In this document: piece by piece, positions 5,491-34,224 of the stretch
Layout: every line of letters begins with the position of its first letter
How positions within the stretch are numbered: the stretch's first letter is position 1
The notes under the pieces: model-generated
Told to the model about the DNA's origin: nothing
Seen by the model: the letters and a program-made list of their open reading frames with translations, nothing else
Database searches by the model: none
Made by a program: the position numbers and the translations under genes
Virus record (IMG/VR): IMGVR_UViG_2563366845_000003
Location: 1-40,875 of that record
From: a virus
Lineage: Duplodnaviria; Heunggongvirae; Uroviricota; Caudoviricetes
Length of the DNA stretch: 40,875 nucleotides
Reading direction: 5' to 3' (one strand)

Positions 5491-5973
5491 TTATTTGATA
5501 AGAAGTGAAGGTTTCCCAACTTTGAGTTGAGCGCCGGGGATATTTATTCCTGCTTTTAGTTGGTGTTTGATTGCCAGTTTGTCGGCTTTAATTGTCGTTT
5601 CAAACTCAACGTATTCAGGAGGAAGGGCGCTTGAGTCGATGATTTCTACAGTTTCTGACGGTTTGCGGATTGTTACCTGGTGAATACCTGCTCGAATCTT
5701 TTTCTTGCCAACCATTTCAAGCGATGACGCTATATACGCCATAATGCTGTCAATCTTGTTTTGAATTACTGCGGCTCGCTCATTTAGTGACTTTGCCTCT
5801 TCCTTGAGGCGTTCAGCATAACCAGATTCATTTTTAATAATGGCAAGAAGTTGCTCTATTTTATCGGTAAATTCTCCTTCCATGCCTTCTATTGTGTCAG
5901 CAATCATCTCTGGTTCTAAATCTGAATCCATTAATTTTGCGTATTCATTGGCAATTTCATACAGTTTGCTCAC
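5491..5973 (-). CDS. Recombination-associated protein, Gp157-like (partner of RecT/Erf in many phages)
   Basis: 160 aa; GTG start with GGAGG Shine-Dalgarno; sits immediately upstream of recT; family assignment from memory of sequence character only. Confidence 0.5.
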   Translation of the reverse strand: MSKLYEIANEYAKLMDSDLEPEMIADTIEGMEGEFTDKIEQLLAIIKNESGYAERLKEEAKSLNERAAVIQNKIDSIMAYIASSLEMVGKKKIRAGIHQVTIRKPSETVEIIDSSALPPEYVEFETTIKADKLAIKHQLKAGINIPGAQLKVGKPSLLIK

Positions 5974-6859
5974 TGGCAGCCTCCAGTTTCGCTTTGCATT
6001 CTATGTAAATGGCTTGTACGTTCTGCTGCAATTTCATTCCAGATGTCAGTCGATATGCTTCTGCAAAATATCGCTTCAAATCATCCATGTTTTCTGCCTG
6101 ATCCATTTCATCACAAAGAAGTTGTGCTTTTTCCATTATTTCCTGCTGGCGTTTCCGTTCATCTTCGCGGATATCTTCCTCTGATTTGTGCGGCATAACT
6201 GGTTCCTGATGCATACCTTCATCTTCGTTAAGCAGGTGAATGGCATTATCCAGTCGCTGGGCTTTAGGCCAGTATTTGCTGGCGCGTTTAACTATTGTTT
6301 TACGCGCCATCTCTTCCCAGAATGTTTTCCACGGTCCATTCTTTGCCTTGCTCGTTGCTTCCACAGCTTTAATTTCTGCCAGACTCATTTCTTCAGTCAG
6401 GTAGTCACCATCTGCTGTTTTAACCGTGCAATAACCTCCAACAATAGAGCCTCGCTCACCAAATGCGTTGTATTTGTGGGTTGGTGCTGAATCAAGGCCA
6501 TTTGATTCATAGGTGTCGTTTGAGTACACCAGTTTGCATTGCCCCCACTTAATTGATCCTGTCGATTGCGCAAGATGAAGTAATCCCATGTAACTGATAT
6601 CAAGGCACACCATGCCGTCGCGCGGAACCAGATAAGCCAGTTTGCTGGCCGGGTTTAAGGTGATGCCGATCGCCGCAACATTGATGATGGCGTTCTGTGC
6701 GCTGGTTGGATTTGCCAGTGCCGTTTTAGCCAGGTAATCGTTTTTCTGGAAATACTGAATTGCAAACTGGCTTTCCTTAGCCCATGTCACCGTCTGTTCA
6801 GTCAATGCTCCGCAGAATAACTGCTCTTGCTGTTTAACGAATTCAACGATATTGCTCAT
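5957..6859 (-). CDS. recT: RecT-family single-strand annealing recombinase (lambda Bet analog)
   Basis: 300 aa; motif GPWKTFWEEMARKTIVKRASKYWP matches the RecT signature (GPWVTHWEEMAKKTAIRRLFKYLP in Rac RecT). Confidence 0.85.
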   Translation of the reverse strand: MSNIVEFVKQQEQLFCGALTEQTVTWAKESQFAIQYFQKNDYLAKTALANPTSAQNAIINVAAIGITLNPASKLAYLVPRDGMVCLDISYMGLLHLAQSTGSIKWGQCKLVYSNDTYESNGLDSAPTHKYNAFGERGSIVGGYCTVKTADGDYLTEEMSLAEIKAVEATSKAKNGPWKTFWEEMARKTIVKRASKYWPKAQRLDNAIHLLNEDEGMHQEPVMPHKSEEDIREDERKRQQEIMEKAQLLCDEMDQAENMDDLKRYFAEAYRLTSGMKLQQNVQAIYIECKAKLEAASEQTV

Positions 6860-7167
6860 GCTGCTTCTCCAAAAATGTGTCTGCGTTTGAATATTGCGAA
6901 GGCATATTCAGCCTTAACTCTTTCGGTTATTGCATCCCAGAACCATTCAGCGGCTTTTTCCTGATAGTTACAGTCATCATCTTCCAGCCAGTCGATAGCG
7001 TCCTTAGTGTGTTCATCTGGTTTATATGAGCGAAGCATTTCGCTTATTGGGTCGCAACGTTTGCAGAGGCGATCAACTTCACTGTTGATTCGTTCGTAAT
7101 CTTCATCAGTAAAACTTGCGATGATTTGCGATATTTCACGCTTATCATTCAGAGTCAGAATCATCAT
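6856..7167 (-). CDS. Hypothetical protein (103 aa) in the position of lambda gam
   Basis: ATGATG start; stop overlaps recT start (ATGA); acidic with several Cys; no similarity to lambda Gam apparent. Confidence 0.5.
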   Translation of the reverse strand: MMILTLNDKREISQIIASFTDEDYERINSEVDRLCKRCDPISEMLRSYKPDEHTKDAIDWLEDDDCNYQEKAAEWFWDAITERVKAEYAFAIFKRRHIFGEAA

Positions 7168-7252
7168 CTTTCTCCTGTTCTTTGTGCTGATTGAGCATTT
7201 TGTTCATCTGACGAATGAATTCCTCGTCTGACCAGTTATCTGTAAAACTCAT
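7145..7252 (-). CDS. Very small hypothetical protein (35 aa), translationally coupled to kil-like gene
   Basis: ATG 7250..7252 overlaps the kil-like stop (ATGA); translation MSFTDNWSDEEFIRQMNKMLNQHKEQEKDDDSDSE. Confidence 0.25.
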   Translation of the reverse strand: MSFTDNWSDEEFIRQMNKMLNQHKEQEKDDDSDSE

Positions 7253-7401
7253 TTCCTGCGATACCACGGAAGGTTGATAGCTGATTTCATCGCTTTATTT
7301 GCTTCAAGCCACATTTTGGAATCACCAATAAATCTGGCTATTACTGCTTTGTTTTGTGCTGCACGAAGCATCTGGTGATTGATGGCTATTTCATTGCGCA
7401 T
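7249..7401 (-). CDS. kil: Kil-like small protein (lambda Kil family, host division inhibitor)
   Basis: 50 aa MRNEIAINHQMLRAAQNKAVIARFIGDSKMWLEANKAMKSAINLPWYRRK; FIGD-KM motif recalled for lambda Kil; GGAGG Shine-Dalgarno; between cIII and the recombination genes as in lambda. Confidence 0.45.
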   Translation of the reverse strand: MRNEIAINHQMLRAAQNKAVIARFIGDSKMWLEANKAMKSAINLPWYRRK

Positions 7402-7520
7402 AACGCCTCCAGTTGTTTCTTTGCTGCTCTGATTAATTGTTTAACTCGGCGTGATAATTCAGATTCGTGCGGGTAGAAAGCGGACATGACGCCGCTACCC
7501 GCGAGCTGAAAGTGCATCAT
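7386..7520 (-). CDS. cIII: CIII-like protein (FtsH inhibitor that stabilises CII)
   Basis: 44 aa MMHFQLAGSGVMSAFYPHESELSRRVKQLIRAAKKQLEALCAMK; resembles the lambda CIII core (AGWPVAGCPSESLLERITRKLRDGW); GGAG Shine-Dalgarno; the track ORF 7386..7625 is an upstream over-extension. Confidence 0.55.
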   Translation of the reverse strand: MMHFQLAGSGVMSAFYPHESELSRRVKQLIRAAKKQLEALCAMK

Positions 7521-7584
7521 GGGTAACTCCTTATATTTGATTGCATAACGAAAACGCCTCGAGTGAAGCGTTATTGGTATGCAT

Positions 7585-7610
7585 ATAAAAAAGCCCTCAC
7601 ATTGGAGGGC
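7585..7610 (-). terminator. Intrinsic terminator on the minus strand, about 65 nt upstream of cIII
   Basis: Minus-strand hairpin GCCCTC-caatgt-GAGGGC followed by TTTTTTAT. Confidence 0.6.
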
Positions 7611-7673
7611 AAAGAAGATTTCCAATAATCAGAACAAGTCGGCTCCTGTTTAGTTACGAGCGACATTGCTCCG

Positions 7674-7700
7674 TGTATTCACTCGTTGGAATGAATACAC
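7674..7700. repeat. Perfect 9 bp inverted repeat with 9 bp spacer (GTGTATTCA-N9-TGAATACAC)
   Basis: Read directly; lies in the non-coding stretch between the two leftward terminators. Confidence 0.6.
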
Positions 7701-7728
7701 AGTGCAGTGTTTATTCTGTTGTTAGTGC

Positions 7729-7754
7729 CAAAAATAAAGGCCGGCTATGCGGCC
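7729..7754 (-). terminator. Intrinsic terminator (tL-like) at the 3' end of the accessory gene
   Basis: Minus-strand GC-only 5 bp stem GGCCG-catagc-CGGCC followed by TTTATTTTTGG; overlaps the stop codon at 7745..7747. Confidence 0.55.
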
Positions 7755-8368
7755 TCGGAAGGAAGTCCAATCATCTTATTCAAATCTTCTACCCGTAAAG
7801 CAGGAAGTGCTGTACTTGCTTTATCTGCTTCTTTTGGTAGCAACTCTTTGCTTTCAGGCCAAACTTCAATAAGTCGCTTAACTGTTGTGACTGAGTTCAA
7901 AGCAGCCCATACATTTGATTTGATATCCTTTTTCTTGACTTCAAGTTTTTGTTGCAATGCGCAGATTTCATCAAACCTTTTTGTTATTTCGTGTTCTGCG
8001 TCAAACATGCATTTATCTTTTTCTGGGGTGGGGAGCAATATATCTTCACCGTTGCCGTCTTTTCCGTATGAATGCCAGCCAACTCTTCTGCCAGATACAG
8101 TCAGATAAATTGATGTAGAACGAACATCGTATGAGTAAAATGAACATCCCAGTTTTTTAAGTTCTTCACTTATAGCTACTAACTTGGATGATAACTGATC
8201 CACTTCCTCAGTTTTCTTTTTACCGCCAAACGCAATAACTCTGGCGTCAAGTGCAAGCTGGTTCTTTAACTTTGTTACTTCTTCAAGTTCAGTGAAAACC
8301 CCAGACTTAATTAAAGCGTTACGAGCGATTTCCTCTTTCATTCTCGTAGTTAAGCGGATTGATGACAT
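7745..8368 (-). CDS. Hypothetical accessory protein (207 aa, hydrophilic, Lys/Glu-rich, coiled-coil-like); function unknown
   Basis: ATG at 8366..8368 (MSSIRLTTRMKEEIARNALIKS) with GAGAGGAA Shine-Dalgarno; the track ORF begins upstream at a TTG; followed by its own terminator; occupies the lambda ral/sieB/ea10 position. Confidence 0.7.
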   Translation of the reverse strand: MSSIRLTTRMKEEIARNALIKSGVFTELEEVTKLKNQLALDARVIAFGGKKKTEEVDQLSSKLVAISEELKKLGCSFYSYDVRSTSIYLTVSGRRVGWHSYGKDGNGEDILLPTPEKDKCMFDAEHEITKRFDEICALQQKLEVKKKDIKSNVWAALNSVTTVKRLIEVWPESKELLPKEADKASTALPALRVEDLNKMIGLPSEAA

Positions 8369-8504
8369 ATTAATTCCTCTCAAATAAGTGGTTTGCTGCC
8401 TAATTTCATTTTCTGGCGACCAACACAAGTCACACCCATTTCACTGCGTGGCTTGCGGTAGTAAATAGGGTTATTTATGTCATTAAAAACCAGCATGAGC
8501 GTGG

Positions 8505-8783
8505 TTATTTTTTCTTTCCAAGAGATGGAAGCCCTCCAGAATAATCTGGACCACTTGAACGATGCATTTGATACAATATTGCGTTTTTTATTGCGTTTTT
8601 GTTGGCGTTTAGTGGCTTTGTTGCGAAAGAAATTTTTTCTCGTTTTACATCTCTTATCATCATCAACTCACGTTCTGATGCTTTTGGATGATAATCATTG
8701 ATATGCTTCCATGCTGCCTTGGCGCTGAATTTTCTTCCACATAAAGGGCAATAGCATTTATATGATACTTGTTTGCTAGTCAT
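8505..8783 (-). CDS. Small C2H2-like zinc-finger protein (92 aa)
   Basis: Motif C-P-L-C-x11-H-x4-H (CPLCGRKFSAKAAWKHINDYH); ATG 2 nt after the N stop codon. Confidence 0.6.
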   Translation of the reverse strand: MTSKQVSYKCYCPLCGRKFSAKAAWKHINDYHPKASERELMMIRDVKREKISFATKPLNANKNAIKNAILYQMHRSSGPDYSGGLPSLGKKK

Positions 8784-8785
8784 TT

Positions 8786-9094
8786 CTATCTCGCCGTAAT
8801 TGATTTCATTGACCTGTAACCAGCAGCATACAGTGCAACTTCAGGCAAACAAACGCTTCCGCCATTCGCATCTGTATTTGATTTACTGATGATGCCGAGT
8901 GATATTGCTTTTTCAGAAAGACTTAAACGCTTTCTCGGTTCTTCCTGAACAGCTTCCTCACTGTCTGTGCCGAAGATCGAATCGATGATGTTGCAGATGG
9001 AATCACGCTCGATAGCCAGCTTTCTGCGCCGCTCATGACGGCGAGTTTTGGCATTTCCTGCAAATGTTGATTTTCCGTACACGATTACCGTCAT
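8786..9094 (-). CDS. N: Antitermination protein N, P22 type (gene 24 homolog)
   Basis: 102 aa starting MTVIVYGKSTFAGNAKTRRHERRRKLAIER; GNAKTRRHERRRKLAIER is the P22 N arginine-rich boxB-binding peptide; GAGGA Shine-Dalgarno; the track ORF over-extends upstream. Confidence 0.85.
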   Translation of the reverse strand: MTVIVYGKSTFAGNAKTRRHERRRKLAIERDSICNIIDSIFGTDSEEAVQEEPRKRLSLSEKAISLGIISKSNTDANGGSVCLPEVALYAAGYRSMKSITAR

Positions 9095-9213
9095 GATGTT
9101 TTCCTCATGTGAAATGGCTTTGGTGGTGATGCGCCAGGTGCTGATCTTCTGGTTGCTGTCGTTGCAGCTGCAATTCACATCACCGCCAAACCCATCTCGT
9201 TTGGTATCTGTTT

Positions 9214-9247
9214 GCGCTTTGTCAGCGCCCCATCGAAGTTAAAGAGC
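9214..9247 (-). promoter_or_regulatory. nutL site (boxA GCTCTTTAAC, 9 nt spacer, boxB GCGCTGACAAAGCGC)
   Basis: On the minus strand boxB is identical to P22 nutL boxB; boxA matches the CGCTCTTTA-type consensus; lies in the pL leader upstream of N. Confidence 0.8.
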
Positions 9248-9293: not shown

Positions 9294-9322
9294 ATAGTAC
9301 GATGTGTACTTTAATGAGTCAA
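9294..9322 (-). promoter_or_regulatory. pL promoter (-35 TTGACT, 17 bp spacer, -10 TACTAT) with overlapping OL operator palindrome AGTACGATGTGTACT
   Basis: Hexamers on the minus strand at 9317..9322 and 9294..9299; palindrome AGTAC-N5-GTACT at 9296..9310 overlaps the -10; a related element sits in OR. Confidence 0.6.
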
Positions 9323-9447: not shown

Positions 9448-10107
9448 TTAACTAAATGTCTCTTCAGGCCACTGGCTGGCGATAACTTTCCCTACTACGG
9501 AACAGCTATCATTGCATGGGATCATTGGATATTGCGGGTTTAGTGGTTGTAGGAACACCTGACCGCTATCCCTGATCAGTTTCTTGAAGGTAAACTCGTC
9601 ACCGCCAAGTCTGGCTATGCAGAAATCTCCTGGCTCAACAGCCTGCTCAGGGTCAACGAGAATTAACATTCCGTCAGGAAAGCTTGGCTTGGATCCTGTT
9701 GGTGCGGTCATGGAATTACCTTCAACTTCAAGCCAAAACGCACAATCACTGGCTTTTTTGGTTGTGCTGACCCATCTCTCCGCATCACCTTTGGTAAAGG
9801 TTCTAAGCTCAGGCGAGAACATCCCGGCCTGAACATGAGAAAAAACAGGGTACTCATATTGTTTTTTAACGGGGGCAGATGAGTATTCGCCAACAGGTGA
9901 AAATGTACCGTCGTGGTTGAATGAGACGTTATCAATACCAAGGTATTTAAACACCACACCAATCTCGTCAAGAGATGGATGACGAGATCCGCGCAACCAG
10001 TGACCAATTCCACCCTGCGTCATACCAAGCTCTTCAGCTAACTTCTCTTGAGTTATGCCGAGCTCTTTCATTCTGGATCTAGCCAGTTCATACCATTTCA
10101 TTTTCAT
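9448..10107 (-). CDS. cI: CI-type prophage repressor (HTH N-terminal domain plus lambda-like S24 LexA-type autopeptidase C-terminal domain)
   Basis: C-terminal 130 aa nearly identical to lambda CI ([38 protein letters not shown] ... QWPEETF); N-terminal DNA-binding domain is different; ATG 10105..10107 with AAGGA Shine-Dalgarno; the track ORF over-extends to 10182. Confidence 0.85.
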
Positions 10108-11019: not shown

Positions 11020-11911
11020 CATATCTAATCTAGCCGAAGCCAGAGAGGCCAGAAGGCTACAACAACCGCATCAAAGCAGCGGTAAGGGGTATGCCTTGCT
11101 GCACCGTAAAATTATGGATGTGCCGTTTTACAAGGACGCAGAAGCAGCGCATCTGTGGGTTCACTTAATCCTCAAAGCAAAGCATACGCCTGAGTATGTA
11201 ATGACTGACGCAGGAGAAATTCTGGTAGGCAGAGGGAAGCTACTTGGCGGTAGAAACTCTCTGGCGTTTGAAACAGGACTCAAACCAGATCGCGTTCAGT
11301 ACCTGCTTAGAAAGTTCAAAAAACTCGGCATGATTGACTGGGTTTCACACGGTAAATTCTCAGTTTTCTCGGTAGAGAAATATGACGATTATCAGTCAAA
11401 TTTTGTACCAGCAGATTACCAGCAAATTACCACCTCAAAGCCAGCAATACCAATGGCTGCAAGCAATACTGTACCAGCAGATTACCAGCAAATTACCACA
11501 GATAAAGAATATAATAATATTATCTCTAATACTGACGTATTAGAGAGTACCGCAGCAGACAAAAAGTCTGACAAGAAAAAACCTTCCGTTAGCTGTCAGG
11601 ATGTTGTCGATGCTTACCACGAAATCCTTCCTGAAGCGCCAAGAATCCGCGCACTGAATGACAAGCGTAAAAACCAGATCCGAACGTTCTGGCGCAAAGC
11701 CGGAGTGATAACCCGCCAGCTTGACGGGCATGGGTTCACGATGCAGGACTGGAGAAATTATTTGAGCTACGTAGGCGAAAATTGTCGATGGATGTTCGAA
11801 GAGCGCCCAAACCATCAGCGCGGAACCGTCTGGCACAAAAAGGGATTTGATTTCCTGCTTAACGATAATACCTACCTGAAAGTTCGTGAGGGTGAACACG
11901 ATGACCGATAA
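11012..11911 (+). CDS. O: Replication initiation protein (lambda O / P22 gp18 functional class)
   Basis: 299 aa; position after cII; contains the ori-like iteron array; internal tandem [10 protein letters not shown] peptide repeat. Confidence 0.7.
11404..11537. repeat. Putative replication origin: two 29 bp direct repeats (iteron-like, ATTACC units) followed by an AT-rich block
   Basis: GTACCAGCAGATTACCAGCAAATTACCAC at 11404..11432 and 11470..11498; then gataaagaatataataatattatctctaatactg; same architecture as lambda ori inside O. Confidence 0.55.

Positions 11912-31378: not shown

Positions 31379-34224
<2,846 letters not shown>

Follow-up and report, generated by a model that had tools for sequence, protein, structure and literature searches.

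A probable lambda-type PreS small RNA module, with a conserved hairpin at its 5' end, upstream of cIII in a phage genome

CpxQ and SdhX are Hfq-dependent small RNAs (sRNAs) that are cut from longer mRNAs and end at the intrinsic terminator of the operon, and StxS is an sRNA of Stx phages that arises from early termination at tR'. The system closest to the locus described here is PreS/LPR1 of phage lambda, which was published by Silverman, ..., Melamed (bioRxiv 10.1101/2024.10.31.621285; Mol Cell 2025;85:4678) and is located between ea10 and ral (review PMC12197685). Lambda PreS was found by RIL-seq during infection as an Hfq-enriched RNA whose 3' end is the terminator tL2a; northern blots give bands of ~88 and ~68 nt, the shorter being a processed form, and the RNA is expressed in the lytic cycle only (bioRxiv 10.1101/2024.10.31.621285). 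Its targets share an 11-nt motif complementary to the unpaired seed, through which PreS activates the translation of dnaN, the host DNA-replication clamp, and represses alaS, both effects being proved by compensatory mutations (bioRxiv 10.1101/2024.10.31.621285). Spontaneous phage release drops 2-fold when the seed is deleted and 4-fold when all of PreS is deleted, with fewer plaques; this effect depends on Hfq and RecA, and a seed-deletion prophage has less phage DNA after UV induction (bioRxiv 10.1101/2024.10.31.621285). PreS is conserved at no less than 92% identity in 2,537 genomes (bioRxiv 10.1101/2024.10.31.621285).

The window analyzed here is a stretch of 40,875 nucleotides, positions 1 to 40,875 of the IMG/VR virus record IMGVR_UViG_2563366845_000003 (Caudoviricetes). 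We found that the interval at 7521-7744 is very probably a lambda-type PreS module that lies between terminators in the early leftward pL operon, and we place the probability of this reading at about 0.88. PreS and the leftward terminators are already known, and the window copy by itself adds no new biology. The conserved hairpin at the 5' end of PreS is the sole element that the accessible text of the preprint leaves undescribed, and the final paper may already explain the biogenesis of the RNA. The features of the region are as follows, in the order in which leftward transcription would meet them.

9322..9294, minus strand: pL-like promoter, TTGACT-17-TACTAT, in the immunity-left control region
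9247..9238 and 9228..9214, minus strand: nutL-like site of the immunity-left control region, boxA-like GCTCTTTAAC and boxB-like GCGCTGACAAAGCGC, respectively
8789..9097, minus strand: N-like open reading frame (ORF), PHROG match phrog_271, with the arginine-rich motif GNAKTRRHERRRKLAIE
Stop codon at 7745-7747, minus strand: upstream accessory gene of 207/227 aa, phrog_1965, function unknown
7728..7756, minus strand: intrinsic-terminator-like hairpin, stem 7756..7737 and then UAUUUUU, overlapping the stop codon at 7745-7747
7703..7727, minus strand: C/A-rich spacer homologous to the lambda ral-ea10 intergenic region, with mosaic junctions
7671..7702, minus strand: 14-bp RNA hairpin, 5' arm 7702..7689, loop CAAC 7688..7685, 3' arm 7684..7671
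7586..7671, minus strand: PreS/LPR1 homolog of 86 nt (in lambda 88 nt, NC_001416 34011..33924, complement)
7610..7641, minus strand: PreS seed or target-pairing region, PreS positions 31-62, identical to lambda
7587..7610, minus strand: PreS terminator, homolog of lambda tL2a, stem GCCCUC/GAGGGC 7610..7593 and U6 7592..7587
7542..7583, minus strand: cIII leader hairpin, core stem AACGCUUC/GAGGCGUU 7572..7553, outer stem GCAUA(C)/(U)UAUGC
7386..7532, minus strand: cIII gene, 44 aa, Shine-Dalgarno sequence AAGGAG 7532..7527, ATG 7520; phrog_550, E = 2.6e-13
Downstream, with cIII, minus strand: kil, phrog_2055

The minus strand from 7745 to 7585 is ~96% identical to the intergenic region between ral and ea10 in lambda (lambda 34083..33924), and the minus strand from 7583 to 7521 matches the intergenic region between ea10 and cIII, that is, the cIII leader. 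By alignment, the window carries these two intergenic pieces of lambda fused to each other, with ea10 missing. Because ea10 is absent from the window phage, cIII is the first gene downstream of the PreS terminator. We rebuilt lambda PreS from the primers P810, P1103 and P1104 (Table S5 of the preprint) as GAGCAAUGUCGC...GAGGGCGAUUUUUUA, 88 nt in length. A global alignment over these 88 nt showed one substitution, in the terminator loop, and a deletion of 2 nt before the U-run in the window copy, and judged by this comparison the minus strand at 7671..7586 is a member of the published PreS/LPR1 family. An earlier note on this DNA, made without database searches, had suggested a small RNA of about 120 nt between two terminators. 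An sRNA does appear to be encoded there and the second terminator is its predicted 3' end, but its length is ~86 nt, and its body starts after the palindrome and does not contain it.

The window copy has the seed of lambda PreS and its upstream hairpin, is likewise placed after N in the pL operon and is likewise predicted to end at the terminator. The two loci differ in their surroundings. The lambda RNA lies between ral and ea10, whereas in the window the phrog_1965 gene lies upstream, ea10 is missing, and the terminator is followed after ~20 nt by the cIII leader hairpin. In addition, the U-run comes directly after the stem in the window (GGGC-UUUUUU), compared to GGGCGA-UUUUUU in lambda.

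The other described sRNAs were less close. Like CpxQ and SdhX, PreS is without a promoter of its own, ends at a terminator and presumably obtains its 5' end by cleavage, and it resembles StxS in arising as a by-product of termination at a site where an antiterminator would otherwise prevent it. Unlike these three, PreS is intercistronic and lies within the operon, not at its end. To our knowledge, no stable hairpin directly adjoining the 5' end has been described for sRNAs of the CpxQ, SdhX or StxS type. AgvB, AsxR, HnrS and PasA-D resemble PreS in being short Hfq-associated sRNAs of lambdoid prophages in pathogenic E. coli. We rejected them as the identity of the element; they lie in the late region, near Q/pR' and the lysis or structural genes, not between N and cIII, and have no sequence relation to PreS. 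Rfam, which includes AgvB and AsxR, gave no match when its covariance models were run on the whole window at gathering thresholds, and at E<=10 no real family was obtained in 7300-7900. The sub-threshold matches to mir-137 (20 bits) and RyhB (16 bits) were chance matches to the hairpin and the terminator. Searches for the sequence strings of the element in article full texts, and in the supplements of Tree et al. 2014, returned nothing relevant.

The interval is intergenic, as the earlier note had claimed; the upstream gene has its stop codon at 7745-7747, and cIII starts with the ATG at 7520. Inside it there are only two small ORFs, of 31 aa (7571..7666, minus strand) and 41 aa (7673..7798, plus strand), and both are unsupported, the best match in a PHROG search having E=0.36. 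A search for tRNA and tmRNA genes found none in the interval, and no Rfam family is represented there. Folded as a minus-strand RNA, the whole 221-nt interval has z = -6.7 compared to shuffles.

The operon context is that of lambda. PreS lies ~1.6 kb into the operon, on the sense strand and between the N-like gene and cIII, as in lambda. The boxA and boxB of the nutL-like site are recognizable as the P22 type. Between the N-like gene and the phrog_1965 gene there is also an ORF of 92 aa (8505-8783, minus strand), which carries a C2H2-like motif, YKCYCPLCGRKFSAKAAWKHINDYHP, and belongs to phrog_20899, function unknown. The suggestion that the interval is a termination zone of an N-antiterminated operon was borne out, in that the preprint equates the PreS terminator with tL2a and that pL-, nutL- and N-like features lie upstream.

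In a consensus scan, the minus strand showed three terminator-like hairpins in a stretch of 204 nt, and over the 2.5-kb region scanned there were 4 terminator-like sites, compared to 2.1 +/- 1.3 in shuffles. The most upstream hairpin, at 7756..7737, has 7 pairs, of which 5 are G-C, and a loop of 6 (-11.2 kcal/mol, z = -2.45). Its motif GGCCG..CGGCC-TTTATTTTT recurs 5' of PreS in many IMG/VR loci, and among these loci we found one variant changed on both sides, GGACG..CGTCC. The PreS terminator at 7610..7587 is a 6-bp stem of G and C followed by U6 (-11.1 kcal/mol), its end being the predicted 3' end of the RNA, and the records of phages HK97 and HK106 list the hairpin at 7610..7593 as a terminator. 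The two minus-strand terminators of the earlier note (7756..7737 and 7610..7593) were therewith confirmed, but a third hairpin at 7572..7553 had been missed. It is followed by TTCGTT and folds with -16.9 kcal/mol (z = -4.65). This hairpin is homologous to the intergenic region between ea10 and cIII in lambda, which has a hairpin just upstream of cIII, and presumably corresponds to lambda tL2b. Some related contigs show a two-sided change in it (AACGC..GCGUU to AAUGC..GCAUU) together with several loop changes, which would fit a conserved RNA structure immediately 5' of the ribosome-binding site of cIII. Compared to the tL2 cluster of lambda, the hairpin at 7610..7587 is homologous to the sequence that the preprint equates with tL2a, but in lambda the 369-nt ea10 gene separates the two hairpins, whereas they are adjacent in the window.

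The seed, the target-pairing region of the RNA, is identical to lambda in the window. In the lpr1 seed mutant of lambda the deleted stretch is UGUUCUGAUUAUUGGAA, which corresponds to 7636..7620 within the seed, and the M1 site CUG and the M2 site GAA are both present. We took the dnaN target from the dnaA-dnaN junction of E. coli MG1655. The duplex between the seed and dnaN -48..-11 was predicted at -31.9 kcal/mol, compared to -15.9 +/- 3.0 for shuffled seeds. Among 119 IMG/VR loci anchored on the 5' part of PreS, the seed was exact in 110 (92%), and the variation of the module was concentrated in the loop of the terminator and in the bases that separate its stem from the U-run. It had also been proposed that the interval controls the expression of kil, cIII and the recombination genes. 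As a function of the sRNA this was not supported, because lambda PreS acts in trans on host mRNAs and the pairing of the seed with the cIII leader (a 7-nt complement, UUAUUGG/CCAAUAA) was at chance level (-12.2 vs -11.5 +/- 2.4 for shuffled seeds). The best complement of the seed within the operon, at 5880..5850 on the minus strand (-21.2 kcal/mol), was equaled somewhere in the operon by 7% of the shuffled seeds and was not significant; this site lies inside an ORF of 160 aa (5491..5973).

The two arms of the palindrome, GTGTATTCA / TGAATACAC, at 7673-7681 and 7692-7700, match perfectly, as the earlier note had stated, but the spacer is 10 nt and not 9. Inverted repeats of 9-mers with a short spacer gave 11 matches in the window, at about 7 distinct sites, compared to 3.3 +/- 2.1 in Markov-1 simulations. 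The palindrome alone is not statistically exceptional, and it is the conservation and the fold that lift it above chance. Other perfect inverted repeats of 9 bp or longer occur, for example, at 1330-1365 (TGCTTTTTTATA at 1330 with its complement ending near 1365), 11523-11546 and 9962-9988. As minus-strand RNA, the hairpin at 7702..7671 has 14 bp including two G-U pairs and folds with -21.9 kcal/mol (z = -7.2), whereas the same region as plus-strand RNA is weaker (-17.0 kcal/mol, z = -3.7). Three further pairs (7706-7704 with 7669-7667) can stack below the hairpin across a 1x1 internal loop. The last paired base of the hairpin, G7671, is nucleotide +1 of PreS, a coincidence that is only as exact as the lambda 5' end, which was taken from cloning primers and northern sizes.

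We surveyed the hairpin in 110 IMG/VR contigs anchored on the PreS seed and found it in 104 of them. Point changes were few, and they were located in the loop, kept the pairing (U-G to C-G, U-G to U-A) or were rare singletons that break a pair. The remaining 6 contigs, as well as phage mEp043, have a different hairpin, UAUAGCAGAUU-UACG-AGUCUGCUAUG, which also contains G-U pairs on the sense strand and lies between unchanged flanks (GAAUAAGC on the left and GAGCAAUG on the right). In a MAFFT alignment both hairpins fall in the same columns. In this alignment 98% of the cells were paired, and 8 of the 14 pairs had changed on both sides, although all 8 two-sided changes come from a single variant lineage and count as one evolutionary event. 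When the partner was slid by 1-3 columns as a control, pairing fell to 23-55%. Because the variant lineage replaced eight pairs and kept the helix, we read the palindrome as an RNA structure, and the variant hairpin argues for such a structure rather than for a DNA sequence bound by a protein. Among relatives, in which the earlier note had proposed to check conservation and covariance, the hairpin was thus kept in 104 of the 110 contigs and replaced in register in the other 6. In HK022 (X16093, ~470-500), PreS and the 3' arm and loop of the hairpin are kept, but the 5' arm is replaced by an unrelated sequence, leaving a stem of ~5 bp. Because HK022 keeps PreS without the 5' arm, the hairpin is not indispensable for keeping the PreS sequence.

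We searched 6500-9000 for promoter-like sites and found none, compared to 5.4 expected. This range includes 7611-7728, for which the earlier note had proposed a promoter prediction on the minus strand. Inspection of 7672-7716 showed that the -10 and -35 positions for a start at 7671 would lie within the helix. Because no promoter was found and because the expression of PreS in lambda is pL-dependent, we infer that the 5' end is formed by cleavage and that PreS is most likely excised from the pL transcript instead of being initiated separately. On this basis the palindrome may be a conserved element of PreS biogenesis, the foot of which defines the 5' end, with selection acting on the pairing and with the hairpin, the sRNA and the terminator moving from one lambdoid phage to another as a single cassette that has mosaic junctions at its borders. 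We hold this proposal tentatively, at somewhat less than even odds, and a role of the hairpin as a processing or stability element would be part of it.

The module is widespread. A megablast search with 7380-7800 found 330 phage records, including HK97, HK022, mEp235, HK106, many Stx phages and lambda, and the element itself was found in 331 phage records with 95-99% identity. The element was present in 2239 of 5426 complete E. coli genomes (~41%), where it was unannotated and reached up to 6 copies per genome. The IMG/VR contig IMGVR_UViG_2713896799_000014 also has the PreS module. The upstream start of the homology varied among query positions 3, 23, 30 and 41; the innermost of these, 41, is window position 7705, just before the hairpin. 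Downstream, the homology of the module ends right after the U-run, and then comes ea10 in lambda, the cIII leader in the window and HK97, or other small genes. Phage vB_EcoP-611R6 (905-1030) and two further phage loci retain the hairpin and the 5' stem, but of the seed only the first half, as far as GGAAAUC. The 3' part of this vB_EcoP-611R6 type has a different terminator hairpin, UGCCGC-UCUAUAUGG-GCGGCA-UUCUUUU, and the record annotates a hypothetical coding sequence across it. Recent mosaic exchange, and not selection, could account for the high identity among lambdoid phages.

Contigs of GTDB species representatives contained the PreS seed in 24 cases, of which 16 were from non-enteric organisms (Pseudoxanthomonas, Enterococcus, Shewanella, Bradyrhizobium, Pseudomonas, Bacillaceae and others). 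Over up to 400 nt, 15 of these 16 contigs were identical to lambda and the other had one mismatch, and several matches were on contigs of ~48.4-48.5 kb. They look like laboratory lambda DNA contaminating the assemblies and not like real prophages. The taxonomic spread of PreS in BLAST matches should be read with this contamination in mind.

It is conceivable that the interval consists of nothing more than stacked terminators and a linker for recombination, which has been conserved through the exchange of modules at its boundaries and from which the window copy makes no functional RNA. The mosaic junctions on both sides of the module, at ~7705 upstream and right after the U-run downstream, would fit such a linker, and lambdoid segments that have been exchanged recently typically show such identities, 95-99% across phages. 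However, the same sequence in lambda gives an abundant Hfq-bound RNA with genetically proven targets. The substitutions gather in the loop and the tail of the terminator, whereas 92% of the loci have an exact seed, and a pure linker would not need 32 nt complementary to dnaN. We therefore regard this explanation as improbable.

It is even less probable that PreS is a primary transcript from its own promoter, with the palindrome serving as the operator site at which a dimeric regulator binds the DNA. The inverted repeat, with its perfect 9-bp arms and 10-bp spacer, is placed just where the promoter or operator for a start at 7671 would be, but no sigma-70-like pair of -35 and -10 elements was found there, and lambda PreS is seen only when pL is derepressed. 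The G-U pairs lengthen the helix in the sense RNA only, and the variant hairpin keeps the pairing with a completely different sequence, which is the signature of a structure. The product might also be a protein of 31 aa, MSLVTKQEPTCSDYWKSSLPSNVRAFLYAYQ, encoded by the ORF at 7666..7571 on the minus strand, which overlaps PreS. This ORF has an ATG start in both the window and lambda, with GGAG just upstream, and a hypothetical protein is annotated over the region in some records. However, the GGAG is 2 nt from the ATG and partly within the hairpin, and the reading frame runs through the terminator, so that its C-terminus alters with each downstream junction and with the 2-nt indel. In one locus the ATG has become ATA, no protein family was matched, and the lambda phenotypes are explained by compensatory mutations between the two RNAs. 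This is the least probable of the three explanations, and its chance of being correct is very small.

We therefore return to a PreS module within the pL operon, for which the following course of events can be proposed. Transcription from pL (from ~9294) would cross N and two accessory genes before it enters the interval. It would then meet in order the hairpin at 7756..7737, the 14-bp hairpin at 7702..7671, PreS at 7671..7586 with its terminator at 7610..7587, and, after a further ~20 nt, the hairpin of the cIII leader. If transcription terminates at the tL2a homolog, or if the 3' end is trimmed back to it, the RNA would be left with a stem and a U-tail to be bound by Hfq. The 5' end of PreS would most likely be made by an endonuclease that cuts the pL transcript at the base of the upstream hairpin, and candidate nucleases are RNase III acting at the helix or RNase E acting just 3' of it. 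Classical RNase III sites, such as those of the lambda N leader and sib, consist of roughly two turns of near-perfect double helix. The helix here, 14 bp plus 3 bp, is shorter than that. The same cut would leave the upstream message with a protective 3' stem, and a further cut ~20 nt downstream may give the shorter form of PreS.

The homology, the identity of the seed, the complementarity to dnaN, the predicted structures, the conservation and the operon context come from the present analysis. We assume that the window PreS is expressed as in lambda. It would then act in trans during lytic growth, when the seed at 7641..7610 would pair with the dnaN leader and open the ribosome-binding site, so that DnaN increases. 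Together with the repression of alaS, the net effect would be to support the replication of phage DNA. RNA polymerase bound by N would read through all three hairpins and go on to express cIII, kil and the recombination genes.

Reading the raw sequence had flagged a phage sRNA that went unrecognized in lambda until 2024. PreS is unannotated in RefSeq and has no family in Rfam release 15, and a covariance model together with an annotation rule would help. For the hairpin, nature already offers variants, HK022 having lost the 5' arm and vB_EcoP-611R6 having its 3' half swapped. With its compensated variant, the hairpin also lends itself to a concrete and inexpensive test of the way in which PreS is freed from the pL transcript.
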